IMG/VR virus record: IMGVR_UViG_3300037465_000050
Location: 1-58,281 of that record
Reading direction: 5' to 3' (one strand)
Source: a virus
Taxonomy: Duplodnaviria; Caudoviricetes
Length of the DNA: 58,281 bases
A program made the translations under genes and the position numbers. The notes under the pieces were generated by a model. The model had not been told where the DNA came from. It saw only the letters and a list, made by a program, of their open reading frames with translations, and did not search any database. Of the stretch, positions 2,671 through 28,997 are shown piece after piece. Numbering within the stretch: the stretch's first letter is position 1; every line of letters begins with the position of its first letter.

Positions 2671-2712
2671 GAGGCGCGGCGCGCGCTTCCTGGCGCGCGC
2701 CGCGATCGTCTA

Positions 2713-6124: not shown

Positions 6125-6631
6125 ATGGAACATGCACAGAGCATCGACGGCGCTGCCCGCGCGATCGAGCCGATGCGACGGCTCGCCGCGCTACACTTCC
6201 AAATCGAAGGCACCGAGGCGCAGCTCAAGGCGCTGAAAGCCGAGGCTGAGAGTTTGGAGCAAGTCTGCCTGGCGACGTTCGTCGAGATGGGCATCGACTC
6301 GCTACCGCTCGCGATCGACGGCCAGCCTGTAAGCGTGCACCTGCACCGCACGTTGCGCACGACGAAGGCCGATGGAGTCGAAATGCAGGCTGCCGTCGAC
6401 GCACTCAAGGATGCCGGACTAGGCTGGCTCGTGCGCGAGCAGTACGTCGCACAGACGCTCGGCAGCTGGGTGCGCGAAGAACTTGCAGCAGGTCGCGTGC
6501 TGCCGCCGACGTTGACGACGCTGTTCGACATCCGTGAGATAACCGATGTGCGTGTCACACGCACGACGAGGCAGGAATCCGCGAGTTCGCGCGCGGCGAA
6601 AACACTACGCGCGCAGTCGAAGACCGAGTAG
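6125..6631 (+). CDS. Hypothetical replication-module protein (N-terminal coiled coil)
   Basis: GGAGG SD; position between helicase and SSB-like gene. Confidence 0.75.
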   Translation: MEHAQSIDGAARAIEPMRRLAALHFQIEGTEAQLKALKAEAESLEQVCLATFVEMGIDSLPLAIDGQPVSVHLHRTLRTTKADGVEMQAAVDALKDAGLGWLVREQYVAQTLGSWVREELAAGRVLPPTLTTLFDIREITDVRVTRTTRQESASSRAAKTLRAQSKTE

Positions 6632-12675: not shown

Positions 12676-12972
12676 ATGAAGAAGAAACTTAAATACGTCA
12701 TCGTCCGAACATTCTCGGCCGGCGTGTTCGCTGGAGAACTGGAGTCGCGCAAAGGGCGCGAGGTCGTGCTCCGCAACGCCCGCCGAATCTGGTACTGGGC
12801 AGGGGCGGCTTCGCTGTCCGAGCTGGCGGTGCATGGCACGAGCAAGCCGGCAGAGTGCAAGTTCCCGGTGGCCGTCGATCGTATCGAGCTCCTCGAAGCC
12901 ATCGAAATCCTCGACGTGACGCCCGCCGCGCGCAAGTCGATCGAGGAGGTGCCGGTGTGGTCAGCGAAGTGA
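12676..12972 (+). CDS. DUF6948-like phage protein
   Basis: [14 protein letters not shown]...[20 protein letters not shown]; AAGGA SD. Confidence 0.8.
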
Positions 12973-15705: not shown

Positions 15706-17052
15706 ATGAACGTCAAGAAATCCGCCGGCATCCTCGCGGCAACCGTAGTTATATCCTGCTCAGCAAAGGCCGGCGAGCGCACGCTGACCGGAACGATCGT
15801 AGGACAGATCCAGACGTACAACTTGCGCGCGAACAACGCGCAAGGAGAGCCGATCGAGACCGACGTCGGAGTCCAGTACGCGGTTCCGCGCTGGGATGGA
15901 TACGACGAACACGGAACGTGGGTCGGCTGGGATAGGCTCCAACGCGTCGATGTCCAGACGCAGGCGTTCCTGTTCACGAATGGAGACTTCGAGAACGTCT
16001 CAGCCACACCGCTGTGGTGGGCAGTCGACCACGGAGCACGCGCGTGGTACTCGATCGGATCTCCAGCAGGAGGACCGACGCCGCATGGTGCGGCCGAGTT
16101 CGGCGGCGGGATCCAGGCGTATCTCTACGGCGCTAGCACCACGCCGGCCTTCGATGGCGTGCATGACTTCGACGGAAGCTCTGGCGGATGGTGGGGCGGA
16201 GCCGGACCTGTAGCCATAGTCGAGTCGTGGTACGTCGATGCGCGGCACGAACGCGTAATGCGGGCACTATGCGGGAACGGAATCGTTCCGGTTACGCTCA
16301 ACCTGCGATCGCACTTCGAGCATATTGAGTCGTCGCATTGGAGCTTTCGCGCACGTACGTATATCATTCCGCAAGAAATCCCTTACCAGCCGCAGCCGGC
16401 AACGATGATCCGCGTCACGTATACCTGGGCCGATCCAGGTCAGCAGGTCTACACGCATGAAGTGACGCCTTGGCAGGAAGTCGGGACGCTATGGTCGCCG
16501 ATGATGGCGACGCAGCAGCCGATGACTGGAACCGGCGTTGCCAACTACGATGGAACGCTGTTTCCTCCGGTCTGGACCACGTGGCCGCAGATCATGCCTG
16601 GCGCCGCGAGCGTCACGCTTGAAACCTCGTCGCGCAGCCTCGTCTGCTTCGGCGTCGAGAACGTCGATCCGCTACCGCAGTTCTGCAGCGGATGGGGCGT
16701 GCATTACGTCGATTGCGGTGCGCCGTTCTACAGCAACGGCATCGGCTACAACTTCGGCGTCGGATCGTCGCAACAAGACCTCGGCGCGTTCGATGGCGTG
16801 ATCGACTACCGAGGTGGAAGCGGCATCGACAGGTTCGCTGCTCAGGGTGGATCGTCATACCATCAGATGGATACGCTTTCGGCTCCGTGGCAGATCGCCC
16901 CGCTAGAAGCCGGGCCGACCGACTGCTACTGGCGCCTGCGCTCATGCAGCGCGGCGTTCGTTCCAGAGTTCCTCGATGCGCCGATATCGTGGTGGATGCG
17001 TAGCGGAATCCACGTCAGAGCACGTCTCGTCGTGCGAAAAACCCTTCCGTAA
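15706..17052 (+). CDS. Secreted protein with two choice-of-anchor-E-like repeats
   Basis: N-terminal signal-like segment; two copies of ENV...AFDGVxDxxGxSG (PAFDGVHDFDGSSG, GAFDGVIDYRGGSG); AGGAG SD. Confidence 0.6.
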   Translation: MNVKKSAGILAATVVISCSAKAGERTLTGTIVGQIQTYNLRANNAQGEPIETDVGVQYAVPRWDGYDEHGTWVGWDRLQRVDVQTQAFLFTNGDFENVSATPLWWAVDHGARAWYSIGSPAGGPTPHGAAEFGGGIQAYLYGASTTPAFDGVHDFDGSSGGWWGGAGPVAIVESWYVDARHERVMRALCGNGIVPVTLNLRSHFEHIESSHWSFRARTYIIPQEIPYQPQPATMIRVTYTWADPGQQVYTHEVTPWQEVGTLWSPMMATQQPMTGTGVANYDGTLFPPVWTTWPQIMPGAASVTLETSSRSLVCFGVENVDPLPQFCSGWGVHYVDCGAPFYSNGIGYNFGVGSSQQDLGAFDGVIDYRGGSGIDRFAAQGGSSYHQMDTLSAPWQIAPLEAGPTDCYWRLRSCSAAFVPEFLDAPISWWMRSGIHVRARLVVRKTLP

Positions 17053-17166
17053 TGGCGCAAAACGGGAAATCTGCAACCCGTGCCCCGGCCCTTGATTCCA
17101 ATCATGATGTATCGAATCTCCTGTTACAGTCGATGCGCGAGTCATGCGGGCTAGGCTGATCGTGCG

Positions 17167-18966
17167 ATGAGCAGCTCGGTCGTATCACTCGTGCTGTGGA
17201 ACGGGCGCACGATCAGCGTCCCGCTTCGCGAGGGATGGACGCACCTCGCGGGCCCGCTCGGTATACACGTAATGATCGAGTCGGACGGCACGATCTCGCT
17301 TCGGATTTCGTGCGGTGTGATCGATGCTCCAGATGGCGCGGGATCGGTCGTCATGCGGCGCGTGATCCTGCGAGCTGACTACGACTGCGATCCGTGGCCG
17401 CGCGCGCGCGCGTTGCGCAGGACGGCCGGCGCGAATGAGTGGACGATCGAGCACGGCGGCAAGGTTGGCGCACCGTGGGTCTTTACCGCGCGCTCGGCAT
17501 TGCGCCTGCGCTTGCGACCAGCCGGCTCCATGCAGTCGACGGAGGCTATCCTGGCCGCGCGCCTGCCCTGCACGCGCGCGCTGGCGATCGCCCCCGGTGT
17601 AGATGTTCCGGTCACGGCGCTCGCGCCAGAGGCCGCCGTAGGCCGCCTGGGGCGCATGCTAGCGGCGCTAGTGTCTGGCGCGGTCGATACCGGAGTCGGT
17701 ATTCAGAGCGCGGCCGGCGCTGTGCGGCATGGCTTAGGCTGGCCGCAGGCTGGATCACCAGGCGGTGACGGCCTGGATTTCCTGCCTGGGACGCTCGATC
17801 CACGTCTGGACCTGCTGACGGCGGCCCTGTGGGCGGACCGACATGCCGTCGACGCGCTGCGCTGCGGCAACGGCTGGCCGGTTGACGCGGCCGAGACGTT
17901 CGATGGCAGCTATTCAGGGGCGCGTGGATGGTACCGCGCTTCCAGTCTGCCGGCTTTTGCCTTGGCCGTCTTGCACGAGCAGCGTACTCGACCGAAGGCG
18001 TGGCCGTCGACCGATCAGGAATTGCTCGACACAACGATAGAGCGCGATATGCTCGTATCGCACGACCTGGGCATCGATTTCTGGTCGTCTCCGCAGCCTG
18101 TCGATCGGCAGCACGAGCGCCGCGTAACCGCGCCTCTAGAGGCGGCTGCCGTACTGTGGGGCGATCGCCTTGCTGGCGTTGATCTGCTGTCGTGCGCTGG
18201 AGATGCGGCGCTGGAATGGACAAGTAATGAGTGCTTCGGGCTGCTAGATTCTGCGCGCTCGGATCCTGGTCATGGATCGCCAGCATTCGGCCGCGCGACG
18301 TGGTGGGCGCTCGATACTCTGCGGCTAGGGAGTTTCGTAGATCGTGCAGATGTCATCGCTCAGGCAGCTAGGATCGCGGCGATGCCGAGCGGATTCTGGC
18401 AGCGAGCGCGGCCTGCTAATCAGCTCGTCGATCTTGCGAATAGCTTGCTGGCCTGGAATCCGGACCCGTACAAGATCGGGATTCCGACGACGGATGAAGT
18501 CGCGCAGACGATGGAGGGATTCATCGGAGCGTATGCGCTCGCGCGTGCAGGCTTCACGAGACCGGCGATCGAGTTCTCTGCGCGAGCGCTGATCGATCGG
18601 CCGAGGTTTCTACGCTCGTCGAGTCGGTCGATTTTGACGCGCTTCGGCCGCGTGCCGAAGTTCGTAGGCGTGGCGCGCGGTATTTGGGACAGTGCCGGCT
18701 ATGCGGAGGGTCCCGCTGCGCGCGAAGTGACGAGCGCGGCAGGCGGATGGGACTACTTTCCGTGGGTCGGCCTGGGCCTTGGGCTCTGGCTTGATGGCGG
18801 GAGGCAGGACCGTTGGCTCGATGCGGCGTACCGGGTGCCGGTGCCGGGTGCCGGAGTGACGCCTGAGCGCACTCAAGCGGCGCTCGCGGCAAGGATCTCT
18901 GGATCCGGTCTCGGAAAAGAGCAGACTGGTCTAGTGCTCGCATGGCTGCGGGCAAGGAGCGCGTGA
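17167..18966 (+). CDS. Large hypothetical protein (599 aa)
   Basis: Long ORF co-oriented and closely spaced with downstream genes; no recognised motif. Confidence 0.75.
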   Translation: MSSSVVSLVLWNGRTISVPLREGWTHLAGPLGIHVMIESDGTISLRISCGVIDAPDGAGSVVMRRVILRADYDCDPWPRARALRRTAGANEWTIEHGGKVGAPWVFTARSALRLRLRPAGSMQSTEAILAARLPCTRALAIAPGVDVPVTALAPEAAVGRLGRMLAALVSGAVDTGVGIQSAAGAVRHGLGWPQAGSPGGDGLDFLPGTLDPRLDLLTAALWADRHAVDALRCGNGWPVDAAETFDGSYSGARGWYRASSLPAFALAVLHEQRTRPKAWPSTDQELLDTTIERDMLVSHDLGIDFWSSPQPVDRQHERRVTAPLEAAAVLWGDRLAGVDLLSCAGDAALEWTSNECFGLLDSARSDPGHGSPAFGRATWWALDTLRLGSFVDRADVIAQAARIAAMPSGFWQRARPANQLVDLANSLLAWNPDPYKIGIPTTDEVAQTMEGFIGAYALARAGFTRPAIEFSARALIDRPRFLRSSSRSILTRFGRVPKFVGVARGIWDSAGYAEGPAAREVTSAAGGWDYFPWVGLGLGLWLDGGRQDRWLDAAYRVPVPGAGVTPERTQAALAARISGSGLGKEQTGLVLAWLRARSA

Positions 18967-18970
18967 GACG

Positions 18971-19366
18971 ATGGCCTTCGTAGCGTACCGAGCGACGACG
19001 TTCGATCTGACCGGCACAAACGACATACAGCGCGGGTCGACATTCGTCGCAATCTTTCAGGTCAAGGACGCAGCCGGTAATCCGCAGAACCTCTCTGAAT
19101 GGGTCGCGTACAGTGCGACTCCAGTTTGCCAGTTCAAGACCGACTACGATCCGCCTGGTGTTACCACAGGCTGCCCGCAGCCGACGATGAGCTACCTCAA
19201 CGGCGGAGTTGCCGGTGAAATCCAGATGGTGATCGATGCCTCTGCGACTGCCAGTGCCTCGGTATCGTCAGGGCGATACGACATCGAGATCAGGTATTCC
19301 TCCACGGAGCGCACGCGCGTCTTCGAGGGCGCGTGGACGATCGACAAGGAGGTCACTACGTCGTGA
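18971..19366 (+). CDS. BppU-N-like Ig-fold virion adaptor protein
   Basis: IQRGSTF...KDAAGNPQNLS...GEIQM...YDIEI...RVFEG...EVT pattern; AAGGAG SD. Confidence 0.65.
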   Translation: MAFVAYRATTFDLTGTNDIQRGSTFVAIFQVKDAAGNPQNLSEWVAYSATPVCQFKTDYDPPGVTTGCPQPTMSYLNGGVAGEIQMVIDASATASASVSSGRYDIEIRYSSTERTRVFEGAWTIDKEVTTS

Positions 19367-20970
19367 CGGAAGTTGTCAAGACCGAGACCGCTGGGACCGT
19401 GGTCGGTCCGCCGATTACGGCCGGCACCGTAACGTCGCTCGTCGAGACGCAGATCAATACCGCGGTGCGTCAGTCGGCCGAGCGCCTGAACGTCGTCGTG
19501 ATCCTGCTCGATGACGTCGGCCGCGAGGAGATCGGCTGGTACGGGCTCGGTGCTGACGTGGCGCCGACTCCGCGTCTCGATGGATTCCGAGCCAAGGGTG
19601 TGACGTTCACGAATGCTTATGCGTACCCTATTTGCGGTCCGACACGCGCGGCCGTCCATACAGGCGTGTACGGAAAAGGAACCGGCCTGGCGGCGAACAT
19701 CGAGGCGGATGATACGTGGTATCGGCTAGCGGACAGCAACGTCCTGCTTCCTGAGATTCTTTCAATAGGCTGTGGGGTCGGTCTCTACGCACGCGGTACA
19801 TTCGGCAAGTGGCATATGTGCGGGTATCAGGGACAGGACTCGCATCCGTTCGACAACGGTTACGCGAGGTTCTTCGGCTGTATCCCGAACGCGGGTAGCG
19901 ATGAATCGCTCGGATACTATAATGGGCACGGGCATTTCCGCTGGCGCAAGGTGACTGGTCCTACGGCGTCAGCTTACGTGCCTGCTGGCTACGATCCTGC
20001 CACGTACCCGGGATATCCAGACGCGTTTGCGTACGACTACACTACGTGGGACGCATCGACGAACGTGCGTGATGCGCTTGCATGGATCAACACGCGCACG
20101 ACGCCATTCATCTGCTACCTGCCGCTGAACCCGCCGCACTCGCCGTTCGAGCGTCCGCCGAACACGATCCTGGACAACGTCGGGGTTGGCGCGACTGGCA
20201 CGAACATCGATCTCGTCAGCTCGACGACGAAGACGGCGCTCGATGGAGCGGGGCTCGGCGTAGGCGAGGTCGCGGCGGTCGGTCAGGAGCGGCTCGTCTT
20301 CAAGGCGAATTTGGAGGCTGTCGACACGCTGATCGGCCTTCTGTACGACCGCATGGATCCGACGAAGCGCGCGTCAACTGTGTTCGTGGTCTGGGGAGAC
20401 AACGGCACGCCGGCGACGGTGATCCAGTCGCCGTACGATCCGTTACACGCCAAGCGGACGCTTTACGAGCAAGGTCTGTGGGTTCCGGCGTTGATCTTTT
20501 CTGACTCTCCGGTCATAACGGCGCCAAATCGGAACAGCTCGGCGCTCGTCCATGCAGTCGATCTGTGCCGTACGATCGGCGATCTGTGCCTCGTGGATTG
20601 GTCATTGCTTGACGAGACGGTCGCGCGCGACTCGATATCTCTTGTTCCGATCCTGCGCAACCCGTCAGCATCGTCGCCGCGCACGCGGATCTACGCTGAG
20701 TTATTTTCTCCGCTCGGCGGTCCGCCAGACTCGGATGCGTGGTACACGGTGCTTTCAGACGGCACGTACAAGGTATTTTTTTCGCCAGGTGGCACGATTC
20801 GTTTCTTCCGGATCGGTACCACGCCAGGCTTCTCGACCGGCCTGCCGGGCTATCGTGAGATGGACGCAGACGATTACATGACGGTATCGCAATCGACTTG
20901 GCCGGCTGCGGTACAGAGTGCATATGCGACGCTGTCGAGCGAGATTGTGGCAGTGATGGCCGAGCCCTGA
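19363..20970 (+). CDS. Formylglycine-dependent sulfatase with short N-terminal beta-rich extension
   Basis: NVVVILLDDVG, CGPTRAAVHTG (CxPxR), FGKWH, PHSP, GDNG, KRTLYEQG..VP; GTGA coupling to adaptor gene. Confidence 0.92.
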   Translation: MTEVVKTETAGTVVGPPITAGTVTSLVETQINTAVRQSAERLNVVVILLDDVGREEIGWYGLGADVAPTPRLDGFRAKGVTFTNAYAYPICGPTRAAVHTGVYGKGTGLAANIEADDTWYRLADSNVLLPEILSIGCGVGLYARGTFGKWHMCGYQGQDSHPFDNGYARFFGCIPNAGSDESLGYYNGHGHFRWRKVTGPTASAYVPAGYDPATYPGYPDAFAYDYTTWDASTNVRDALAWINTRTTPFICYLPLNPPHSPFERPPNTILDNVGVGATGTNIDLVSSTTKTALDGAGLGVGEVAAVGQERLVFKANLEAVDTLIGLLYDRMDPTKRASTVFVVWGDNGTPATVIQSPYDPLHAKRTLYEQGLWVPALIFSDSPVITAPNRNSSALVHAVDLCRTIGDLCLVDWSLLDETVARDSISLVPILRNPSASSPRTRIYAELFSPLGGPPDSDAWYTVLSDGTYKVFFSPGGTIRFFRIGTTPGFSTGLPGYREMDADDYMTVSQSTWPAAVQSAYATLSSEIVAVMAEP

Positions 20971-21331: not shown

Positions 21332-22177
21332 GTGGCACGAATGACTGGACGCAGGCAGATCAAGGGAGAAATCGGCGACGGCGCGCCCGATGTCGTCGCC
21401 GGCTTGCAGATCGAGCGCGTGGCGATCGCGTCGCTGACGCTTGATCCGAAGAATGCGCGGCTGCATCCCGAGCGCAATATCGCTGCGATCGAGGCGTCGT
21501 TGGCGCGGTTCGGGCAGCGCAAGCCGATCGTCGTCGACAAGGACGGCGTGATCCTGGCCGGCAATGGGACCGTCGAGGCCGCGCGGCGTCTAGGCTGGTC
21601 CGAGATCGATGTTGTACGTACGGACCTTGCTGGTACCGAGGCGCGCGCGTATGCGCTAGCTGACAATCGGACTGCGGAGCTGGCGGAGTGGGATCTATCC
21701 GTACTCAAGTCTACATTGGAAACGTTCGACGATCAGACGCTGGATGAAATCGGATTCAGCGATGATATGCTTGCAGATCTAGTTTCCGAATACGAAGAAA
21801 AAGAGCTAAAGCAAGTATACTCATCTAAGGTTGACTCGCCGATCTATACGCCGAAGCGCGAGACTCCTCCGTCGATTAGCGAGTTATTCGATAGGTCAAA
21901 GACGCATAGCTTAATCGAGAAGATAGAAAATTCTCATCTGCCGCACGATGTGTCTGCTTTCCTGCGGTTTGCTGCTGAGAGGCATACTGTATTCCATTTC
22001 GCAAATATCGCAGAGTTCTATGCACACGCAGATAAGAATGTGCAGCGCCTCATGGAGGATTCTGGATTGGTGATCGTTGATTATAAGAAGGCGATCGAGA
22101 ACGGATTCGTCAGTATCATTAGTACTGTACGTCATTTGGCCGATATCGAGCTTGATCAAGTCGATGATGCGCAATGA
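21332..22177 (+). CDS. ParB-like nuclease domain fused to a C-terminal domain associated with phage glycosyltransferases
   Basis: DPKNARLH, FGQRKPIVVD, ILAGNG, LADNRTAELAEWD; C-terminal FLRFAAERHTVFHFANIAEFYAH. Confidence 0.8.
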   Translation: MARMTGRRQIKGEIGDGAPDVVAGLQIERVAIASLTLDPKNARLHPERNIAAIEASLARFGQRKPIVVDKDGVILAGNGTVEAARRLGWSEIDVVRTDLAGTEARAYALADNRTAELAEWDLSVLKSTLETFDDQTLDEIGFSDDMLADLVSEYEEKELKQVYSSKVDSPIYTPKRETPPSISELFDRSKTHSLIEKIENSHLPHDVSAFLRFAAERHTVFHFANIAEFYAHADKNVQRLMEDSGLVIVDYKKAIENGFVSIISTVRHLADIELDQVDDAQ

Positions 22178-23036
22178 TTTTGCCGCTTTGATCCTGACAC
22201 ACGGGCGACCTGACCGCGTCTACACCTATGACTCGTTGATGCGTTCTGGATATACTGGCAGGTGGTATATCGTTATTGATGACGAGGATAAAACAGCCGG
22301 TGGATATATTGAGAGGTTCGGAAAGGACCACGTTGTTGTATTCAGTAAGGCTGAAATCGCAGCACGGATCGATGAAGGCAATAACTTCCAGGACAGGCGA
22401 GCGATCGTTTACGCGCGCAATGCCTGTTGGGATATTGCAGAGAAAGTCGGAGTGCATTATTTTATGCAGCTAGATGATGATTACACAAACTTTCAATATC
22501 GGTCATCTAATAAAAAAGCTGTATGTGGGCAGCGAATATTGGTCACGATGGATAAGCTGCTATCTGCAATGATTGATTTTTTCGAGCAGACTCAAGCCCT
22601 TGCAGTCGCGATGTTGCAAGGTGGTGATTACATAGGATATGGCAATAAATCACACAAAATAGATCATGGTAGTATCCGCAAGTGCATGAATAGCTGGCTT
22701 TGCAGTGTTGATCGTAAGTTTTCATTTCAAGGCACAATGAATGAAGACGCCACCGCATATAGCCTTGGAGGCCTGCGCGGCAATCTATTCTTATCGATCC
22801 CGTTTACATGCATTGGTCAGGTGCAAACGCAGGCATCTGATGGAGTAATGAGCGAGGTTTACGCTAGGTACGGAACGTACGTCAAAACAATGTATTCCGT
22901 AATCGCTGCGCCGTCATGTTGCAAAGTATCGCTTCTGCGCGATCCGAGATCCAATAATGCGCCGCGCATTCATCACAGAATGATTTACGATGCTACATAT
23001 CCGAAGATCGTTCGAGAAGAGCTTGCAAAATCATGA
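22164..23036 (+). CDS. GREB1/TET-associated-type (TAGT-like) GT-A glycosyltransferase
   Basis: ILTHGRPD, YIVIDDED, YARNACW, QLDDDY, MNSW, MNED motifs; AT-richer than flanks. Confidence 0.75.
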   Translation: MMRNDFAALILTHGRPDRVYTYDSLMRSGYTGRWYIVIDDEDKTAGGYIERFGKDHVVVFSKAEIAARIDEGNNFQDRRAIVYARNACWDIAEKVGVHYFMQLDDDYTNFQYRSSNKKAVCGQRILVTMDKLLSAMIDFFEQTQALAVAMLQGGDYIGYGNKSHKIDHGSIRKCMNSWLCSVDRKFSFQGTMNEDATAYSLGGLRGNLFLSIPFTCIGQVQTQASDGVMSEVYARYGTYVKTMYSVIAAPSCCKVSLLRDPRSNNAPRIHHRMIYDATYPKIVREELAKS

Positions 23037-23830
23037 GCGCAAGTACAGCGACAGTCGTAGTACCGTGGCACCGCGACGAAGAGCGCGATAGCTTCCTGCG
23101 CGAGTGGAAGATCAAGCCAGATAATATCCCGGAGTGGCTGATCCTCCAGCACGATGAAAGGCGAGAAGGCTGCGGCGCAACGAAGAACCGCGGAATCAGC
23201 AAGGCAATGGTGCGCGGTGCTGATATTGTCGTCGTCCTCGATGGCGATTGCTATCCTGGTCCGGAGACTGCTAGCGAGAGCAATCCGTTAGAGCACCACG
23301 TCGCACGCCACGTTTCTGCTCTTAGTCCGCAGCCGGTTCGAATGTTCGAAGTTGTTACTCGTCCACCTTCGCGCGGAACACCGTATAGCCAGCTCGACAT
23401 AACGATGCCGGTTGCCATGAGTATCGGCATGTGGACGGATATCGGAGACTATTGCGCCGTGCGTCAACTTGCGCATAATGCAGTACCGATGCAACTGCTG
23501 CCGCAAATGATCTTCGGTCGATACTTTGCTCTATGCGGAATGAATATTGCATTCCGCCCTGCGGTCTGGCGCGAATGGGCGCAGTTTATCGAAGTTTCGC
23601 GATTCGACGATATCTGGATGGGATGGCTGTTGCAGCGCGAAGCGTATCGTCGTGGCTACTGCTTCAATCTGAACGGTCCGCTGGTAAGGCATTCTCGTCA
23701 GAGCAATGTATGGGCGAACCTCCATGATGAGGCGATATATCTCCAGGCGAGCGAGTCTCTCTGGGCTAGGATTGCTACGCATCCATCCGATGATTACGAG
23801 ACGCTTCGTGGGTTGCTTCCCGTCAGATGA
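23033..23830 (+). CDS. RGP/UDP-arabinopyranose-mutase (GT75)-like GT-A protein
   Basis: LDGDCYP, RGTPY, GMW, LCGMNIAFR, RFDDIWMG, HSRQSNVWANL resemble RGP family motifs. Confidence 0.7.
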   Translation: MSASTATVVVPWHRDEERDSFLREWKIKPDNIPEWLILQHDERREGCGATKNRGISKAMVRGADIVVVLDGDCYPGPETASESNPLEHHVARHVSALSPQPVRMFEVVTRPPSRGTPYSQLDITMPVAMSIGMWTDIGDYCAVRQLAHNAVPMQLLPQMIFGRYFALCGMNIAFRPAVWREWAQFIEVSRFDDIWMGWLLQREAYRRGYCFNLNGPLVRHSRQSNVWANLHDEAIYLQASESLWARIATHPSDDYETLRGLLPVR

Positions 23831-24768
23831 ACCGCCGCCCCTCTCGCGTCGAGCCCGACGCAACGCAGCATAACGGCCACCGTGTATGCGGCGCGCTATC
23901 GCACGTTAGGCGGCGAAAGTTCCCGAACGATCCCGACAAGTGGAGGTGCCTAGCGCGTCCTGCGCTCGGCAGCGGCAGATGCAGGCACCACGGGATCGGA
24001 TGCGATGGATCCGGCAACGTCAAGCATGGCGAGCGGAGCACGACGCTGCGATCGTTTCGCGATGTCTACCGTGCTGCGCTTGAGAAGCCTGATTACTCCG
24101 ACCCGCGTGCTGCGATGGCGTTGCTCGATGCGATCGCAGAGCGATTGACGGACCTCGTGGACGAGCGCGACACGCCGCAGTTTCGCAGGCGGGTACTCGA
24201 ACTAAAGCTAGGCATGGACAAGTTGCTCTCGGAAGCGACTCTTGCGCGTCGCGACAGCGATGCTGCCGACGCGCGCGCGCGCGACGCATTGCAACGCGCG
24301 GCCGACGCGCGCGCGGCAGGAGATGCCGTATCCGAAGACGAGGCGCGCGCACAGGCTGACCGCGCGCAGCGCGAGGCCGAGCGGTTCATGACGGATGCGC
24401 GCGAGAAGACGAAGGCTGCCAACGAGGCTAGTCGCGAGCTTACCGAGCTTGCGCAGCGCGGCGCATCCGAGGCCGACGCACTGGACAAACTGCGCGTCGC
24501 TGCCGACACGCTCGCTGGGCGCGTAGCTGAGCTGAATAAGATCCAGCTCGCGGCTCAGGATATTCTGACGAAGCAGGAAATGGTCGGCGTGATGAGCCGC
24601 ATCCTCGACGTGATCTACGAGGAAGCCGGGCCGCGCGCCGCGCAACGCATCGCGATCCGCGTCAGGAATAAGGTCTTCGGCGGCCTGGAAGCGATGAAAG
24701 AGATCGAGCAGATAGGGCAGAATCAGCAACGTGGCGAAGTGGAGCAGGTGGAAGCACCGTCCGGCTGA
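23827..24768 (+). CDS. terS: Terminase small subunit
   Basis: N-terminal CGA...C...GRCRHHG...KHG motif; immediately upstream of TerL. Confidence 0.7.
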   Translation: MNRRPSRVEPDATQHNGHRVCGALSHVRRRKFPNDPDKWRCLARPALGSGRCRHHGIGCDGSGNVKHGERSTTLRSFRDVYRAALEKPDYSDPRAAMALLDAIAERLTDLVDERDTPQFRRRVLELKLGMDKLLSEATLARRDSDAADARARDALQRAADARAAGDAVSEDEARAQADRAQREAERFMTDAREKTKAANEASRELTELAQRGASEADALDKLRVAADTLAGRVAELNKIQLAAQDILTKQEMVGVMSRILDVIYEEAGPRAAQRIAIRVRNKVFGGLEAMKEIEQIGQNQQRGEVEQVEAPSG

Positions 24769-26461
24769 CGAGGTGGACGAGTCCGCGCGCTGGTACAAGC
24801 ATTCAGGGGCTCTCAGCTCGTGGGAGAAGGCGATGCAGCGCCATTCTCCAGAGGAAGATGCGTCTGGTGGGGAGGCTCCGTACGCGCACTATCTCGGCCG
24901 GGAAGTAGCCTTCGCGCAGGAAGTCCTCGACGAACGCCTGTGGGCGTTCATGAAGGACGTTCTGGAGTCGCTGGCTCACGATCGTTTCGTGACCGTGCGT
25001 GCTGGCCGCAAGTCGTCGAAGACGGAGATCGCGGCGATTGCTGCGCTGACGTGGCTCTACACGCGCCGAGGAATCGTACTGACGTCAGCGCCTGGCGGCC
25101 GGCAGGTGCGCCGGCAGGTATGGGAGCGAATATCGATGATCCTAGCGCGCGCGCGCCGCCGGCATGTCTTGCCTGGAAAGATGGGCACGACGTCCCTGGA
25201 GATCGGACCCGAGCACTACGCGATGGGCTTAGCGACCGATGATCCTTCGCGGCAGCAGGGCTGGCACGCCGGTGTTGTCGTGCCTGACGATCCAGACCGT
25301 GAGCTGACCGAGGCCGATCTCAAGGTTCTGGCAGCGAAGACGGACGGTGGCGAGGCGCGCTCGATGCTCATCATTATCGACGAAGCATCCGGCTACGACG
25401 AGTCGCTATGGAACGCGATCGAGGGATCGCTGTCCGGATCGAACGTCTACGTGCTGATGCTGGCGAACCCGACGCGTCCGTACGGTGACGAGCATTTCTT
25501 CGGGCGCACGTTCCGTTCTGGCTCTGGATACAAACGTATTCGAGTCTCTGCGATCGCCCCGAAAGACGACGAGATCGACGAAGTTCCGTATGACGTCTGC
25601 TACGTCACTCCGAAGTGGCTGCTTGCTACGGAGTTTGTCGATCGTGCACGCAAGAACTGGAAGGTCGGATCGCCGATGTGGGCCGCCTACGTTTGCGGTC
25701 GATTTCCGTCGGTATCGCTGGAGCAGGTATTCGTCAGCACGGCGACGATTGCGTCCGCCGAGATTGCGTATGCTGCTGGTCGCGATGTCGACTGGTCGCT
25801 AGATCGGCGCCCTGGTCGCCATATCGGCGTCGACGTCGCGCGCAGCGGGAATGATGAGTGCGTGGCATCGCTCGTCGTCAGCGGAGTGCTGGCAGCGCAG
25901 CATTCCTGGCGCTCGACTGATCTGATGACGAGCGCTGGCATGGTGGCAAAGCTGATGCGCGACTGGGGCGAGAACGGACGAGCGATCGAAGCTCGCAACG
26001 TCCACGTTGACTCGATCGGGCTCGGGGCCGGCGTCGTTGACCGGCTGAGGCAGATGGGGCTGCGCGTCGATGCTGTCGACGTCGGCGCGAAGCCAGTCGG
26101 CGACTGGAAACGGCTCGTCGGAGAAACCGACTTTGCCAACCGCAAGGCCGAGCTGTTCTGGGTCGTGCGGCGCGCGATGGAGGAGGGACTGGCCGTGATC
26201 CCGGAGAAGTATGCAGATACGCGCAGGCAGGCAACGTGGTGCCGCTACGAGATCGTTGGTCGGTCCGGCGGCTCCGTCGTTGCCGTTCATCATGAGGACG
26301 GCAAAGAAGAGCTGCGCGGGCGGTACGGCAGATCGCCGGACCATTGGGAATCCTTCATGCTGGCGTTCAGTCGCGGATCGAGCGCCGGCGTGCCGGGCTA
26401 CACGGTTCTCGGCGCCAGTTCTGGAAGGCGCGGCCGGATCGCTCGGCTGCTTGGGCGCTAG
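24731..26461 (+). CDS. terL: Terminase large subunit (alternative start 24833)
   Basis: Walker A RAGRKSSKT, Walker B IIIDEA, LANP, nuclease GVDVARSGND, VDSIGLGAGVVD, RSPD. Confidence 0.93.
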   Translation: MAKWSRWKHRPADEVDESARWYKHSGALSSWEKAMQRHSPEEDASGGEAPYAHYLGREVAFAQEVLDERLWAFMKDVLESLAHDRFVTVRAGRKSSKTEIAAIAALTWLYTRRGIVLTSAPGGRQVRRQVWERISMILARARRRHVLPGKMGTTSLEIGPEHYAMGLATDDPSRQQGWHAGVVVPDDPDRELTEADLKVLAAKTDGGEARSMLIIIDEASGYDESLWNAIEGSLSGSNVYVLMLANPTRPYGDEHFFGRTFRSGSGYKRIRVSAIAPKDDEIDEVPYDVCYVTPKWLLATEFVDRARKNWKVGSPMWAAYVCGRFPSVSLEQVFVSTATIASAEIAYAAGRDVDWSLDRRPGRHIGVDVARSGNDECVASLVVSGVLAAQHSWRSTDLMTSAGMVAKLMRDWGENGRAIEARNVHVDSIGLGAGVVDRLRQMGLRVDAVDVGAKPVGDWKRLVGETDFANRKAELFWVVRRAMEEGLAVIPEKYADTRRQATWCRYEIVGRSGGSVVAVHHEDGKEELRGRYGRSPDHWESFMLAFSRGSSAGVPGYTVLGASSGRRGRIARLLGR

Positions 26462-26696: not shown

Positions 26697-28997
26697 TTGC
26701 TACTGGGGTTGGCTGGTGCGCTGAACGATTCCCGTGGTCGGACGCCGCCGTTCTATCGGAACGGCAGCTCGTCGAGCACGTTCGAGCTGCGGCGAGTTCA
26801 GATCGCTGGCAACGATGATAGAAGCGGGAATGAAGGTGAACGGCAGCTCAGGCGCGCAGAGGCGCGCCTGGGCATTCGCCGCGACGCAGCGCAGACGCTA
26901 GCAAATCTCGGTTTTATTTCGCTTACGCCGGTAGCGGGCGGGAAGGATGAGATCACCGAGCCGTTCCGCGACTCATGGGTCGTCTACGCCTGCGTCCGAG
27001 CCTGGAAGCGCGCGTTACGCGGGATCCCGATGGTTCTGCGGCGCGGGCAGGACCCGGACTCGCCCACAGTTGGTCCTGGCGATCAGCTGTTCGACTTGCT
27101 GAGCCGCCCGAACCCACGACGCGGCCTGACGTGGCCTGCGATGGTCGAGCAGGACATGACAAACCTGCTGCTGACCGGGGAGTCGTTCTGGTTTTTAGCC
27201 GATGCTATTGGGCGGCCAGTCGTTCCTGCGAAGGACTACGATTCCGACCAGTCGCGGCTGATTCCGCTTCCGATTCAGATTGTTCCGGTGATCGGCTCTA
27301 TGACGCAGATCGAGCTACGTCCAGCTGACGGGCTCCCGTGGGCGTATTCATTCGCGCGATCTGGCTCGGCCGAGCGAATCAAGTTCGCGCCTTCGAGCGT
27401 GGTGGCGCACGTCGAGTACGACCCGTACAACGCCTTCCGTGGGATCGGGCCGGCGGAGATCGCGGCGCGCGCTGCTTCCGTTGGTTTCCAGGCCGAGCGG
27501 TACAGCGAGGCCGTAATGCGTTCTGGCGGTCCTGGAGCGTTTTTGGTCTATCGACAGGAGGAGCTGTCGCCGGAAACCGAGTCCCAGTTGCAAGAGAAGA
27601 TCGACGAGGCGATCCATGCGCCCGATCGCACTGGCGGTTTGCAAGTTCTGACTGGCGATGTGGATGTCGTGCCGAATCCCGCGACGCCGAAGGAGATGCT
27701 GACGCGCGAGGCGCTGACGGAATCTCGTGATGCGATCTGCACAGTGATGGGCGTTCCGCCGCCGGTGATCGGGATCTACGACCGAGCGACGTACAACAAT
27801 ATCAGCGAAGCGTATCGACAGTTTTATACGAACGTGCGCGCGACGCTCGACGTATACGCGGAGACGATCAACATCCTCTTCATTCAGAGACTCGAAGATT
27901 ACAGACTCGCTGAATACAGAGTTTCCTTCGACTATTCGACAGTCAACTATCTGCGCGAGTCCGAGGATGACAAGATCAAGCTGTCCGCGGACGTGGCCGC
28001 GAAGCGAGTTGGTCTATCGTTCAACGATGTAGCGCGCCTTGCTGGAGTTCGCGGCGAGCTTCCTGCAAGCGGCGAAGAAGTTGCCAAGGCCGACACAGAG
28101 CAGGTCATCGACGTCGATAGCGAGGACGAAGAGCGCGCGTTGTCGTCACAGGCCGCACGCGAGGCATACGTCGAGCAATACCACGCGCGCGTTACTGCGC
28201 CGTTCGAGCGCGAGCTTGGCCTAGGCGTAATGGGTTGGCTGCGTGGTTACGAGCGCGCAGTAATCCGCCGCGTGCGTCGCTTTGCCGAGATCGGGCCGCA
28301 CGAGGACGAGAAGACGGCGCTGAGCGAGACGCGAGATAGGCCGAACGTCACGCGTGAATTGTTAACTGTCGAACAGATCGACGAGCTGCTCGGTGCGAAT
28401 CACCGGAAATGGGCGCAGCTTCTCGAAGCAGCAGCGTCTAGCGCCCTGGATGGCGTATATGCTGCGGCGCTGGCAGATATGGCTGCTGAGCTGGCAGTTA
28501 TCCAGATCCCGATGACGTCGCCGTTGGTCCAGTCGTTCCTGGCGACGCAGAAAATCCGCCTTGCTGAGGGAGTCGAGTCAACGATTGCAGCGCGCGTGCG
28601 CGGTGCGCTGCTCGAAGTCCTTTCGGAAGCATCAACCGGAACAGACCTCCAGGCCGCAGTTCGGGAGGTATTGCCCGAGCTGACTGACGAGCTGCGGCGC
28701 GTTTTCGGGTCGAAGGAAGCCCGCGCTGCGACGATCGCGCGCACCGAGGTAAGCAAGGCGGCCAGCAACGCGCGCGCGCGACAGATGACCGAGGCAAACG
28801 TTGGCGCAATCGAGTGGTTGACGATGCGCGACGGTCATGTACGGCCGGCACACATTGCGCTCGACGGGCAGATCCGTGCCAATGGTCAGGAGTTTTTGCC
28901 CGGCCTGCGTTGGCCGCACGACGAGAACTGCCAGGATGCGAGCCTGGTCGTGAACTGTCGTTGTATCCCGTTACCAGTTCTGAGCACCACGCCATGA
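26697..28997 (+). CDS. HK97-type portal protein fused to MuF/SPP1 gp7-like minor head domain
   Basis: VYACV, LLSRPNP, LLLTGESF, RGIGP, MGVPPPVIG..ATYNN; C-terminal IARTEV, WLTMRDGHVRPAH..LDG, VNCRC; start uncertain. Confidence 0.88.
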   Translation: MLLGLAGALNDSRGRTPPFYRNGSSSSTFELRRVQIAGNDDRSGNEGERQLRRAEARLGIRRDAAQTLANLGFISLTPVAGGKDEITEPFRDSWVVYACVRAWKRALRGIPMVLRRGQDPDSPTVGPGDQLFDLLSRPNPRRGLTWPAMVEQDMTNLLLTGESFWFLADAIGRPVVPAKDYDSDQSRLIPLPIQIVPVIGSMTQIELRPADGLPWAYSFARSGSAERIKFAPSSVVAHVEYDPYNAFRGIGPAEIAARAASVGFQAERYSEAVMRSGGPGAFLVYRQEELSPETESQLQEKIDEAIHAPDRTGGLQVLTGDVDVVPNPATPKEMLTREALTESRDAICTVMGVPPPVIGIYDRATYNNISEAYRQFYTNVRATLDVYAETINILFIQRLEDYRLAEYRVSFDYSTVNYLRESEDDKIKLSADVAAKRVGLSFNDVARLAGVRGELPASGEEVAKADTEQVIDVDSEDEERALSSQAAREAYVEQYHARVTAPFERELGLGVMGWLRGYERAVIRRVRRFAEIGPHEDEKTALSETRDRPNVTRELLTVEQIDELLGANHRKWAQLLEAAASSALDGVYAAALADMAAELAVIQIPMTSPLVQSFLATQKIRLAEGVESTIAARVRGALLEVLSEASTGTDLQAAVREVLPELTDELRRVFGSKEARAATIARTEVSKAASNARARQMTEANVGAIEWLTMRDGHVRPAHIALDGQIRANGQEFLPGLRWPHDENCQDASLVVNCRCIPLPVLSTTP

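Follow-up and report, generated by a model that had tools for sequence, protein, structure and literature searches.

Genes and base composition of the locus

The window analysed here is the whole 58,281-nucleotide stretch of a Caudoviricetes record in IMG/VR (IMGVR_UViG_3300037465_000050), a linear fragment with a CheckV completeness of 61%. Ahead of the packaging and capsid genes of this virus lies a cassette encoding a ParB/Srx-like protein, a TAGT-family glycosyltransferase and a short GT75/RGP-like protein (Table 1). The initial annotation had described three overlapping genes coupled directly to terS, and the open reading frame coordinates and the sequence confirmed this arrangement, on the plus strand, through to TerL. 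Direct reading of the sequence places the stop codon of the ParB-like gene (TGA, 22175-22177) 14 nt into the TAGT gene. ATGA overlaps join the TAGT gene to the GT75-like gene (23033-23036) and the GT75-like gene to the terS-like frame (23827-23830), which overlaps its upstream neighbour by 4 nt and TerL by 38 nt. The second open reading frame spans 22077-23036, and its family matches begin at residue 31, corresponding to the ATG at 22164 and a protein of 290 aa. The ParB-like gene has an alternative ATG at 21341 that gives the 278-aa form present in protein collections. The putative terS product returned no match in Pfam, PHROG or NCBIfam, and no promoter or terminator signal was found in the interior of the cassette.

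Table 1 Features of the cassette and of the adjoining packaging and capsid genes (positions in the window)
Feature	Position	Strand	Size and basis of assignment
ParB/Srx-like protein (putative adaptor)	21332-22177	+	281 aa; phrog_620 and fold comparison
Low-GC island	21690-23830	.	GC 0.45 rising to 0.55 in a 0.63-GC phage
ParB C-terminal domain (ParB_C)	21815-22174	+	profile A5; within the low-GC part
TAGT-family GT-A glycosyltransferase	22164-23036	+	290 aa; PF20691, phrog_842
Short GT75/RGP-like protein	23033-23830	+	265 aa; PF03214, fold, residues
Putative small terminase subunit (terS)	23827-24768	+	313 aa; position only
Large terminase subunit (TerL)	24731-26461	+	phrog_2, E 8.4e-23
Portal-MuF fusion	26697-28997		downstream of TerL
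Major capsid protein	30080-31303		downstream of TerL

The first 120 codons of the ParB-like gene have a GC content of 0.63-0.68, and from nucleotide 21692 onward the value falls to 0.37-0.53. The TAGT gene has a GC content of 0.457, the GT75-like gene 0.553 and the terS-like frame 0.650. Across 574 windows of 900 nt the mean is 0.630 (sd 0.041), and all 12 with a GC content below 0.52 start between 21501 and 22601, the sole such trough in the whole stretch; the lowest value among 58 one-kb windows is that of 22001-23000. These figures bear out the earlier observation of a GC drop beginning in the middle of the ParB gene, from about 0.65 to 0.45 at codon ~120. The left edge of the island coincides with the boundary between the N-domain and the C-domain, and an unrelated high-GC contig (L061) displays the same break within its ParB gene. 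The earlier suggestion that a cassette was swapped in behind the ParB domain fits both the break and its recurrence in the second contig, and we read the cassette as a mobile unit, traded through recombination to the rear of a conserved ParB N-domain.

The three cassette proteins

The ParB-like protein comprises a ParB/Srx domain (residues ~22-116), helices at 122-162, a disordered linker, a helical C-domain (~189-250) and a long terminal helix. It matches phrog_620 over the whole profile (E 1.4e-48), and its residues 25-163 match phrog_498, a ParB-DNA methyltransferase family (E 6.9e-36); its score against Pfam ParB_N, 15.9 bits, lies below the curated cut-off of 26.3. In the AF2 model (pLDDT 81.6), residues 22-116 resemble KorB (Z 12.7, rmsd 1.9, 88 aligned), PadC (Z 12.4), pNOB8 ParB (Z 12.3) and sulfiredoxin (Z 11.2), and a Foldseek comparison with ParB/Noc gave E ~1e-6. 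The same domain also resembles the small-molecule kinases free serine kinase (Z 9.1) and SbnI (Z 8.0). Canonical segregation ParBs carry an arginine-rich nucleotide (CTP)-binding motif, and at its position an alignment of 33 ParB-like sequences (A2), which has invariant residues in both domains, holds A76-G77-N78-G79-T80. The linker contains a conserved Y-x-K-I-x-x-P-I-Y-x-P motif whose Y163, P170 and Y172 are invariant within the disordered stretch. The protein is acidic (pI 4.9; family median 4.6), and residues 121-281, a part barely probed, gave no helix-turn-helix match. DNA binding by this family is not evident because its members are strongly acidic and have no recognisable helix-turn-helix. 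The term ParB fusion used in the initial annotation captures a real N-domain plus C-domain layout, but one that is not peculiar to this phage, since phrog_620 and at least 566 IMG/VR stretches matched by the ParB_C profile A5 share it.

The TAGT-like assignment of the second gene product held when examined by HMM. The PF20691 match covers profile positions 4-199 of 205 with 104.9 bits (cut-off 27.5) and E 7.2e-30, and a six-frame search places it at 22188-22829 (E 6.7e-32). The protein also matches phrog_842 (E 1.4e-59) and has at least 1969 relatives. An alignment of 27 TAGT sequences retains D39, D40, D42 and the motif Q102-x-D104-D105-D106-Y107 without exception; DxD motifs mark GT-A enzymes. 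The TAGT fold is described as GT-A (PMC13216743). The protein is basic (pI 8.6; family median 8.7) and soluble by hydropathy, and none of the three cassette proteins has a membrane segment. The beta-glucosyl-HMC-alpha-glucosyltransferase of T2/T6, likewise a phage-encoded GT-A enzyme, belongs to the same Pfam family (TAGT, PF20691) and the same phrog_842, and the invariant DDD motif of our alignment is of the GT-A type found in that enzyme. According to the accounts consulted, the T2/T6 enzyme acts on glucosyl-5hmC in DNA, extending an existing glucose, and T-even phages with this enzyme make 5hmC and carry an alpha- or beta-glucosyltransferase (PMC13216743, PMC13390438). In the present phage, by contrast, no hydroxymethylase, Tet/JBP enzyme or alpha/beta-glucosyltransferase was found and TAGT is tied to ParB_C. 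The 34 phage records matched to TAGT at E <= 1e-5 include no T-even phage, and solitary TAGT homologues of undefined function are reported for 288 of 753 phages (PMC13216743).

The third gene product had been proposed to be an RGP/GT75-like mutase, with a generic GT2 enzyme devoid of RGP similarity as the alternative. The generic GT2 alternative fails because HMM, fold and catalytic residues all place the protein in the GT75/RGP family. PF03214 (RGP) matches at 27.2 bits (cut-off 23.8, E 2.8e-6), although only over profile positions 91-276 of 342, and GT2 reaches only E 0.033. Each of the 18 relatives scanned hits PF03214 at E <= 1e-3, and 17 exceed the cut-off. The profile of the family recognises rice UAM2 (8cid) with E 3.6e-36 and MtdL with E 1e-33. 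With the AF2 model (pLDDT 96.3) as the query, Foldseek ranks 1-7 are all GT75 structures, including 8cid (E 7e-11) and MtdL (7xps, 7xpt and 7yua, E ~3e-10) and extending to 1e-9 with TMq 0.66-0.71, followed by a tier of generic GT-A structures at E >= 5.7e-6. The Pfam RGP family and the closest structures are therefore common to this protein and the GT75 mutases (MtdL, Hyg20 and the plant UDP-arabinopyranose mutases/RGPs).

Comparison with MtdL, for which the roles of the Mn2+ site and the sugar aspartates are established (PMC9937993), elaborated on this relationship. Alignment A1 (36 sequences) has D70, D72, R114, D139, D193 and H220 invariant. The Mn2+ site is kept, with D70, D72 and H220 corresponding to D109-D111 and H287 of MtdL, and so is the self-glycosylated arginine (R114, equivalent to MtdL R159 and OsUAM1 R158), which forms an invariant R114-G115 within an S-R-G-T-P-Y motif aligned with P-R-G-F-P-F of MtdL. 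Further equivalents are D139 (D195), R190 (R257), D193 (D260) and R222 (R289). In MtdL the sugar-surrounding D87, D195 and D260 are each needed for mutase activity, and mutation of D87 abolishes it (PMC9937993). The equivalent of D87 is absent here, the position being G48 in this protein and Gly or Ala across the short clade; beside it stands Cys here, where the long bacterial homologues in A1 have Asp. Also absent are a core insert (A1 columns 73-120) along with the helix domain at the C-terminus (the C-terminal ~60-90 residues of long members), and the protein has 265 aa compared with the 340-376 aa of characterised GT75 mutases. In its G-M-N motif it follows the plant type (S-G-I-N) and not that of MtdL (S-Q-N). 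The setting differs as well, with phage ParB-TAGT cassettes here and antibiotic or cell-wall pathways for the known mutases. Judged from sequence and model, the protein is probably a metal-dependent enzyme, either a mutase that interconverts the pyranose and furanose forms of an NDP-sugar or one that glycosylates an arginine of its own. The family part of the earlier proposal thus stands on HMM, fold and catalytic residues, whereas the term mutase is likely but not secure because one sugar-pocket aspartate and two domains of the characterised enzymes are missing.

Distribution of the cassette and related systems

No named family covers ParB_C, a domain specific to viruses. Its fold, in a barely probed part of the protein, gave no clear match, and its atlas neighbours are unnamed viral clusters. 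A TAGT gene follows ParB_C in every one of the 78 IMG/VR loci with at least 900 nt downstream, at a distance of -60 to +100 nt in 77 and of 974 nt in one. The coupling of ParB_C and TAGT is not chance adjacency, because it holds in 78 of 78 loci. Loci retrieved with the TAGT protein have a ParB gene directly upstream in 17 of 17 cases. E. coli, Lactobacillus and Nocardia phages carry the pair ahead of their terminase genes, as does the archaeal virus HHTV-2, and the pair is present in phages with unrelated terminases and capsids. One locus (L167) has ParB_C after N6/N4 methylase genes and without ParB_N.

The GT75-like gene is rare in these loci (2/78). Among GT75-like metagenome loci, TAGT lies upstream in 26 of the 30 with at least 1 kb of upstream sequence, being absent in the other 4, and ParB_N in 16 of the 18 with at least 2.5 kb. 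Elsewhere the position directly after TAGT is occupied by a flavin UDP-galactopyranose mutase (L117; PF03275, E 6e-30) or an epimerase/GDP-mannose-dehydratase (L033, L137), and a sulfotransferase (L044) and methyltransferases (L062, L085) occur in or directly after ParB-TAGT cassettes. Going by these family assignments, putative enzymes for tailoring sugar nucleotides gather in the slot, among them pyranose-furanose mutases of two unrelated kinds. A homologue of the GT75-like protein with 61% identity occurs in a surface-carbohydrate locus of a bacterium, the setting one would expect for a sugar-nucleotide enzyme. Methyltransferase genes were also seen beside GT75-like genes in two loci (L075, L076) where TAGT upstream is absent or the sequence is too short to tell. 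A scan of 133 representative proteins around ParB_C-TAGT pairs (E <= 1e-5) identified C5 DNA methylase, N6/N4 methylases, MT-A70, PAPS reductases and amidoligase with GATase. Other neighbours seen are a UDG-superfamily gene and a ParB-PAPS-reductase.

Three other systems share parts of this architecture. The phrog_498 ParB-DNA methyltransferase fusions match the present ParB N-domain through their N-terminal part, as given above, and phage fusions of this kind also sit ahead of packaging genes; the catalytic partner here is a separate glycosyltransferase gene connected through ParB_C and not a fused methylase. The E. coli Rac-type prophage gene ynaK (ParB/Srx family) and its neighbour, annotated as a GREB1-related protein, have the same two-gene architecture and sit between lysis genes/trkG and terS. 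The prophage TAGT is 49% identical to the one described here and the ParB proteins match in both domains, but the GT75-like gene is absent there. Of 5,426 complete E. coli genomes, 889 carry at least 80% of the pair, and the ynaK/ydaY literature found, as far as its available text goes, consists of genome-announcement, deletion and screening papers. The third system is ParB176/5mYOX176, whose ParB runs from a nucleotide-binding domain through a short helical segment and a disordered linker to a C-terminal domain, the same layout as that predicted by the model here. The available account describes this ParB type as having no obvious DNA-binding domain and as encoded beside a DNA-modifying enzyme, often near terminases and glycosyltransferases, and reports that on dsDNA a ParB of this layout activates a phage thymine dioxygenase (O'Toole et al., PNAS 2026, PMC13229309). 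The N-domain motifs in Dataset S11 of that report resemble alignment A2 by eye only. The partner of the present ParB is a glycosyltransferase and not a dioxygenase, and its C-domain is different and TAGT-linked; the search for a cognate 5-methylpyrimidine dioxygenase (Tet_JBP) beside ParB found none in the window or around the 78 ParB_C-TAGT pairs.

Candidate function and its alternatives

The initial annotation had proposed a hitherto undescribed glycosylation, perhaps with a furanose, and this is kept here as a candidate. We give about even credence to a cassette that glycosylates phage DNA late in infection, with ParB assisting and with a tailored donor that is possibly a furanose. We infer every step of this scheme; family memberships and gene linkages are what was observed. 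The cassette would be late-expressed and translationally coupled to the packaging genes, and would most likely act on the phage's own replicated DNA. The acidic ParB/Srx-like protein would be an adaptor or activator whose C-domain pairs with the basic TAGT and whose N-domain is the module that is fused to phage DNA methyltransferases and activates thymine dioxygenases on double-stranded DNA; it may recruit the transferase to DNA or open the duplex to it. TAGT would then use an NDP-sugar to glycosylate the acceptor. Tailoring of the donor would fall to the GT75-like enzyme, whose Arg/Asp/His-Mn centre would most likely turn an NDP-pyranose into an NDP-furanose, a role suggested by the mutase and epimerase genes that occupy the slot after TAGT and by the retained GT75 catalytic set. 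The modified DNA would be packaged and be harder for host nucleases to cut.

By analogy with related systems, the context favours DNA over the capsid as the target. This preference is due to the match of the ParB N-domain to the ParB part of phage DNA methyltransferases (phrog_498), the reported activation of a thymine dioxygenase on dsDNA by a ParB of the same layout (PMC13229309), the reported action of the characterised T2/T6 TAGT on glucosyl-5hmC in DNA, the DNA methylases, PAPS reductases and amidoligase with GATase among ParB_C-TAGT neighbours, and the basic nature of the TAGT family together with three proteins that lack membrane segments. The same neighbours, of which the amidoligase and GATase are of hypermodification type, are not capsid-decoration genes. 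They make it unlikely that TAGT modifies a virion or packaging protein, or the Tyr/Thr/Lys-rich ParB linker, with the GT75-like protein supplying or relaying the sugar. The service of the ParB/Srx module to DNA-modifying enzymes elsewhere (phrog_498; PMC13229309) and the spread of the ParB-TAGT pair over phages with unrelated terminases and capsids also argue against a protein target. Nevertheless, the eukaryotic TAGT-family member GREB1 glycosylates a protein, by a reported O-GlcNAcylation (PMC7968844), and GT75 enzymes self-glycosylate an arginine (PMC9937993) that is invariant here as R114. The cassette also adjoins structural genes, the disordered linker keeps its invariant Y163, P170 and Y172, and the acidity of the ParB-like family is unlike that of a DNA binder.

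If DNA is the target, the classical route would be glycosylation of 5-hydroxymethyl-uracil or -cytosine, its maker enzyme lying in the missing 39% of the genome or being too divergent to recognise. A base-modifying enzyme could sit in the missing part because the window is only 61% complete. The phage TAGT or GT-A DNA enzymes characterised in the sources consulted all use 5hm-pyrimidines, and glycosyltransferases (31%), ParBs (27%) and terminases (19%) are the commonest neighbours reported from phage 5mYOX profile searches (PMC13229309). We regard the classical route as quite improbable in view of the searches for such an enzyme. The initial annotation had recognised no TET/JBP oxygenase, and a six-frame search of the 61%-complete window with PF12851 agreed, being empty at E <= 1. 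This profile found nothing in 16 records (the window, 10 from IMG/VR, one of them 93% complete, and 5 phage records, four of which are complete genomes), a result whose sensitivity for divergent phage dioxygenases is uncalibrated. The thymidylate-synthase-type PF00303 was found in 0 of 5 records, and neither Tet_JBP nor thymidylate-synthase proteins occurred among the 133 ParB_C-TAGT neighbours (E <= 1e-5). Moreover, HHTV-2 is described, in the available text of PMC7911831, as having no replicase of its own. A hydroxymethyl-pyrimidine handle appears not to be made by these phages.

Close GT75-like homologues do occur in two sugar loci that do not look phage-derived, one with TIGR04396, an FkbM methyltransferase and a NeuB-like synthase (L034) and the other with GT2 and DUF707 (L084). 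In soil virome work, viral GT75 is classed among cell-wall auxiliary metabolic genes (PMC11032446), and 4 of the 30 GT75-like loci lack TAGT upstream. These observations would suit auxiliary genes that change the envelope polysaccharide of the host, whether for lysogenic conversion, superinfection exclusion or carbon metabolism, with ParB merely adjacent. Such a role is very improbable given the ParB_C-TAGT coupling in all 78 loci, the overlap of the genes with each other and with packaging genes in a cassette without internal promoter or terminator signal, the lack of membrane segments, and the finding of no lipid-carrier or flippase genes near the cassette. The viral GT75 auxiliary metabolic genes of soil viromes may instead be parts of modification cassettes and not cell-wall genes. 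Least probable of all is the modification of a small molecule, either a nucleotide or a signalling compound, which might for instance disarm an immune signal of the host, a role for ParB/Srx plus transferase for which we know of no precedent and for which the kinase-like fold matches, the acidic ParB-like family and the nucleoside 2-deoxyribosyltransferase-family genes after the GT75-like gene in three loci (L038, L049, L051) speak less strongly than the better fold matches to DNA-associated ParB, KorB and PadC (Z > 12), the late packaging operon position and the DNA-methylase neighbours, which point to DNA.

DNA glycosylation, the reading preferred here, is a major route by which phages escape restriction, CRISPR and glycosylase-type defences. 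To our knowledge, all characterised phage DNA glycosylation routes start from a hydroxymethyl or hydroxy pyrimidine, and we know of no glycosyltransferase that glycosylates unmodified DNA. The cassette belongs to a very large ParB-TAGT family (at least 566 IMG/VR stretches; 889/5,426 E. coli genomes) that appears without the starting enzyme. A bolder proposal, which we hold tentatively and consider doubtful, is that the ParB_C-TAGT pair glycosylates canonical, unmodified DNA directly on base or backbone without such a handle, ParB opening or presenting the duplex and the furanose here coming from a minimal GT75 mutase. The ParB_C-TAGT linkage, the tailoring slot and the recombination behind the ParB N-domain make the question testable with cloned genes. 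If direct glycosylation of canonical DNA is true, it would represent a new DNA modification chemistry in hundreds of phages and in about one-sixth of complete E. coli genomes.

Gene layout and protein families

The window is an entire linear record of 58,281 nt, 61% complete by CheckV, from a freshwater metagenome; a single run contains it, as contigs, and no RNA run is listed. The cassette lies between a replication block and the packaging and structural block, in which TerL is followed by a portal-MuF fusion, a capsid protein, a tail tube, a tape measure and tail proteins. The best relative of TerL among 50,697 phage records is at most 28% identical. The ORF coordinates bear out the three overlapping genes coupled to terS that the initial annotation had described, with terS being a positional name for a 313-aa ORF that matches no family of Pfam, PHROGs or NCBIfam. 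NCBIfam also holds no model for the ParB-like, TAGT or GT75-like protein. An Rfam scan gave no match, a promoter/terminator scan returned fewer sites than shuffled sequence, and a TcdA_TcdB_pore row in Pfam (E 0.072) was dismissed as chance.

Just upstream of the cassette, a sulfatase-family gene and two long ORFs ahead of it make up an unusual cargo at the junction of the replication and packaging modules (15706-20970). The window ends (1-4500 and 53000-58281) have a GC of 0.66-0.69, higher than the rest, and minus-strand ORFs, with weak FapA-like beta-solenoid matches on the left and an ATPase gene on the right. These ends could be prophage host flanks or additional phage genes.

Features of the window and of related loci (L numbers are retrieved IMG/VR or metagenome contigs)
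Feature	Position	Strand	Remark
SNF2 helicase	4579-6120		Replication block
Pam3 gp33-like DUF7307	6125-6631		E 1e-13; small phage domain
UvrD-like helicase	9708-11432		Replication block
DUF6948	12676-12972		E 4e-33; small phage domain
448-aa ORF	15706-17052		Signal-peptide-like N-terminus; no family
599-aa ORF	17167-18966		No family
Sulfatase-family gene	19333-20970		PF00884 E 2e-22
ParB-like gene	21332-22177	+
TAGT gene	22164-23036	+	ATG start, 14 nt inside ParB gene
GT75-like gene	23033-23830	+	ATGA overlap with TAGT
terS-like ORF	23827-24768	+	ATGA overlap with GT75-like gene; overlaps TerL
TerL	24731-26461		Opens packaging and structural block
SMC/AAA_23-type ATPase	55641-57206		Right window end
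ynaK and 'GREB1-related protein'	L001:4217-5933		Rac-type prophage pair
Triad	L061:2159-4780		Low-GC island
ParB_N-ParB_C-TAGT, then UDP-galactopyranose mutase	L117:1540-4254		Mutase directly after TAGT; flavin-type, PF03275 E 6e-30
NAD-dependent epimerase/GDP-mannose-dehydratase genes	L033, L137; L048		Behind TAGT; upstream
Radical-SAM/SPASM genes	L010/L053, L106
Sulfotransferase	L044:1545-2390		Inside related cassette
Amidoligase and GATase	L171:4294-6039		Flank ParB_C-TAGT
MT-A70 methylase and PAPS reductase	L126:1104-2530		Flank ParB_C-TAGT
Two N6/N4 methylases	L167:1006-2776		ParB_C without ParB_N
C5 DNA methylase	L114:7-1371		Flanks ParB_C-TAGT
Family X	L053:3002-3988; L044:709-1623; L046:2345-3220; L012:5117-5986
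Large MuF-like protein	L010:6796-9906; L053:4796-7816; L052:1399-3885; L081:568-3054
PF05014 gene	L038:2655-3041		29.7 bits, above cut-off of 28.8
PF05014 genes	L049:1587-2072; L051:5474-5959		25.1 bits each, below cut-off

The family calls made for all three genes were correct, TAGT by PF20691, the third gene by PF03214 and fold, and ParB by phrog_620. The TAGT assignment, for which the initial annotation had looked to an HMM, scores 104.9 bits against PF20691 (E 7.2e-30; cut-off 27.5 bits) and matches phrog_842 at E 1.4e-59. Its acidic GT-A motifs (D39/D40/D42 and Q102-x-D104-D105-D106) are invariant in the alignment, and a sequence search of the PDB gave no meaningful match. The match of phrog_620 covers the ParB-like protein in full (E 1.4e-48), its residues 25-163 resemble phage DNA methyltransferases in their ParB part (phrog_498, E 6.9e-36), and its score against Pfam ParB_N falls under the curated cut-off. 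In the structural model, residues 22-116 adopt a ParB/Srx fold (KorB Z 12.7, PadC 12.4, sulfiredoxin 11.2), beyond which the chain continues with helices, a linker that is conserved though disordered, and a small C-domain of helices. Residues 121-281 gave no fold match above helical noise (Z <= 4.5), whole-model searches being dominated by the N-domain. Atlas neighbours of the C-domain are unnamed viral clusters and one auto-named 'DNA methylase family protein' (0.90), which is a lead only.

The third gene had been called RGP-like, the contrary case being a generic GT2 without RGP similarity. That case is not borne out, as the Pfam RGP profile gives 27.2 bits (cut-off 23.8) and GT2 merely E 0.033. 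The protein falls in a tight clade of approximately 260 aa, with 532 relatives at E <= 1e-3, the best 120 of which are 55-66% identical, and 19 clusters at E <= 1e-30. The next-nearest relatives of this short clade are full-length PF03214 members of 320-400 aa (for example, E 1e-58). When short and long members are aligned, D70, D72, R114-G115, D139, D193 and H220 are invariant and R190 is nearly so. The seven best PDB matches of the model (pLDDT 96.3) are rice UAM2 and MtdL, the sole solved GT75 enzymes among the matches listed (E 7e-11 to 1e-9), with generic GT-A folds ranking behind them from E 6e-6. A profile of the family aligns with rice UAM2 (E 3.6e-36) and MtdL (E 1e-33) from end to end.

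The window residues were mapped onto the MtdL residue roles described in excerpts of PMC9937993. The protein keeps the Mn2+ site (D109/D111 of the MtdL DxD and H287, here D70/D72 and H220), the diphosphate-binding R257 and R289 (R190 and R222), the covalent-intermediate R159 (R114), the proposed catalytic base D260 (D193) and D195 of the sugar pocket (D139). D87, also of the sugar pocket, is lost (G48), and the absence of one essential Asp sets the clade apart from MtdL and is a weak point of the donor-tailoring reading. By this mapping, the protein is a minimal GT75-like enzyme in which the mutase machinery is mostly but not wholly kept.

Linkage and proposed exchange of the cassette genes

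A query with the TAGT protein matched 34 phage records; judged from the hit table or from five inspected regions, a ParB gene lies directly upstream of TAGT, and in most cases terminase genes lie just downstream. Carriers of the pair include prophage-type phages of E. coli, the Lactobacillus phages c5 and phi jlb1, Nocardia phage NTR1 and haloarchaeal virus HHTV-2, and a ParB gene abuts TAGT in 17 of 17 IMG/VR loci found via TAGT. An unbiased converse search with A5, a profile of the virus-specific ParB C-domain (ParB_C) alone, returned at least 566 IMG/VR stretches, of which the top 80 were analysed. Within these best 80, TAGT lies downstream of ParB_C in all 78 loci with at least 900 nt of downstream sequence; it starts within -60 to +100 nt of ParB_C in 77, a radical-SAM gene intervening in one. 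The N-terminal ParB/Srx domain (ParB_N) precedes ParB_C in 73 of the 78, and in at least one of the remaining five (L167) its place is taken by DNA methylase genes.

Of 5,426 complete E. coli genomes, 889 carry at least 80% of a pair formed by ynaK (ParB/Srx) and a 'GREB1-related protein' or hypothetical gene. This pair sits between trkG and terS in Rac-type prophages, and the K-12 derivative MC1061 carries only its first ~250 nt, with ydaY. A title-level literature search found no functional study of ynaK/ydaY.

The GT75-like gene is rare in the ParB_C set, occurring in two of 78 loci (L094 and L099). In the ten IMG/VR loci found with this gene, ParB and one to four TAGT genes precede it wherever upstream sequence exists. 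Among 56 metagenome loci, TAGT is present in 26 of the 30 with at least 1 kb upstream and ParB_N in 16 of the 18 with at least 2.5 kb, counts that are not fully independent because some of these loci duplicate IMG/VR contigs. The four exceptions among the 30 and the single genome match, 61% identical and from a Gemmatimonadales MAG, are surrounded by sugar methyltransferases, GT2, DUF707, a TIGR04396 surface-carbohydrate protein and a NeuB-like synthase. Judged by its own loci, the gene mostly belongs to cassettes; the family as a whole is therefore one of general sugar-pathway enzymes, recruited by phages. Soil virome work, in the sections available, tallies viral GT75 as a cell-wall AMG (PMC11032446), and literature on GT75 and bacteriophage yielded virome AMG tallies and unrelated work only. 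A chimera of a 'type 1' ParB_C-TAGT unit and a 'type 2' GT75-like gene is weakened by the same triad in L039, L061/L077, L066, L094 and L099. Some of the best protein matches of all three genes share one listed contig size (16,199 nt), which hints at a common contig.

The initial annotation had noted a GC drop from mid-ParB, and the drop is real and the single such trough in the window. Along the ParB gene, in-frame blocks give GC values of 0.63-0.68 through codon 120 and 0.37-0.53 thereafter, so the left edge lies inside the gene, at the domain boundary. GC is 0.457 in TAGT, 0.553 in the GT75-like gene and 0.650 in the terS-like ORF, and GC3 drops from 0.6-0.95 to 0.35-0.65. Among 574 windows of 900 nt (mean GC 0.630, sd 0.041), 12 fall below 0.52, and each of these starts within 21501-22601. 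The triad of a second high-GC phage contig, L061 (99.95% identical to L077 and counted with it as one phage), forms a low-GC island whose left edge is again in ParB at approximately codon 120. Its flanks have a GC of 0.68-0.74 and the first ~350 nt of its ParB gene 0.63-0.68, followed by 0.43-0.55 across ParB_C, TAGT and the GT75-like gene and a sharp rise past the last stop codon. Its gene order differs from that of the window, with an SNF2 helicase and YqaJ downstream. In L039 (GC ~0.66-0.71) and L066 (~0.41-0.44), the triad matches its surroundings.

These GC breaks fit the proposal that the cassette was swapped in behind the ParB domain; against it, per-domain identities of ParB to its relatives show no mosaic among the proteins, both domains being about equally distant, so that the swap is argued from composition only. 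The pattern fits recombination in the conserved N-domain, through which [ParB_C-TAGT-accessory] units would be exchanged. Alternatively, a single old event may be common to the window phage and the L061 phage.

Accessory genes of related cassettes

Sugar-nucleotide enzymes accumulate in the slot behind TAGT. In L117, this slot holds a UDP-galactopyranose mutase, a non-homologous counterpart of the GT75-like gene. That two unrelated kinds of pyranose-furanose mutase occupy one slot is our strongest reason to regard the GT75-like gene as the source of a furanose donor. Methyltransferase genes are also among the cassette neighbors.

In four cassettes, a conserved protein family, family X (289-328 aa, 47-59% identical, with many invariant His, Asp, Cys and Gln), separates TAGT from the GT75-like gene; it matches neither the TAGT profile (hhalign probability 0.3) nor PDB, Pfam or PHROGs entries and is a candidate for a further pathway step. 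Four loci have a large MuF-like protein directly after the GT75-like gene, with a Hint/intein segment and a HipA/PI3K-like kinase domain, and in some loci a homing-type endonuclease (MTES_1575/DUF559). In three loci, the GT75-like gene is followed at a short distance by genes of the nucleoside 2-deoxyribosyltransferase family (PF05014).

The neighbors of ParB_C-TAGT pairs also include genes of DNA-modification type, namely a C5 DNA methylase, N6/N4 and MT-A70 methylases, PAPS reductases (one fused to ParB), a UDG-superfamily gene and an amidoligase with a GATase, which argues for DNA as the target. Large or small terminase genes make up at least 21 of 133 representative neighbors, a set that covers 173 ORFs 170 aa or longer lying no more than 3 kb from the 80 pairs.

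A proposed role in DNA glycosylation

We propose that the ParB-like protein would act as adaptor or activator, TAGT as the transferase and the GT75-like enzyme as the tailor of the sugar donor, and that the target would be DNA shortly before packaging. The ParB family is acidic (median pI 4.6), the TAGT family basic (8.7), and genes of the two always occur together. A thymine dioxygenase is activated on dsDNA by the phage ParB homologue encoded next to it, a protein comprising a nucleotide-binding domain, a linker and a C-terminal domain, in the available portions of O'Toole et al. 2026 (PMC13229309), where GTs, ParBs and terminases are also the commonest neighbors of such dioxygenases. ParB-like genes are likewise listed among DNA glycosyltransferase neighbors in parts of Pyle et al. 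(bioRxiv 10.1101/2023.12.21.572611). Against a DNA target, a strongly acidic ParB without HTH is no obvious DNA binder, and the TAGT family includes the protein modifier GREB1, according to the accessible text of PMC7968844.

Genes for a hydroxymethyl-pyrimidine handle were sought around the cassette and its relatives. Tet_JBP (PF12851), a profile uncalibrated on divergent phage dioxygenases, had no match in the incomplete window, in ten IMG/VR records (one 93% complete) or in five phage records, four of which are complete genomes (NTR1, HHTV-2, c5 and phi jlb1). PF00303 had none in five records, and neither profile matched any of the 133 representative neighbors at a strict E <= 1e-5. Direct glycosylation of unmodified DNA with a furanose is an improbable reading. 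Our literature searches found no link of ParB with TAGT without a dioxygenase, none of GT75 or reversibly glycosylated proteins with phage DNA modification, and, in the portions available on HHTV-2, no mention of DNA modification. Solitary TAGT homologues are reported in 288 of 753 phages in an excerpt of PMC13216743, which calls their function undefined. The window cassette is probably a variant of known phage DNA-glycosylation systems. ParB_C-TAGT modules form a very large, uncharacterised family, to which this cassette belongs with the GT75-like gene as a rare addition.
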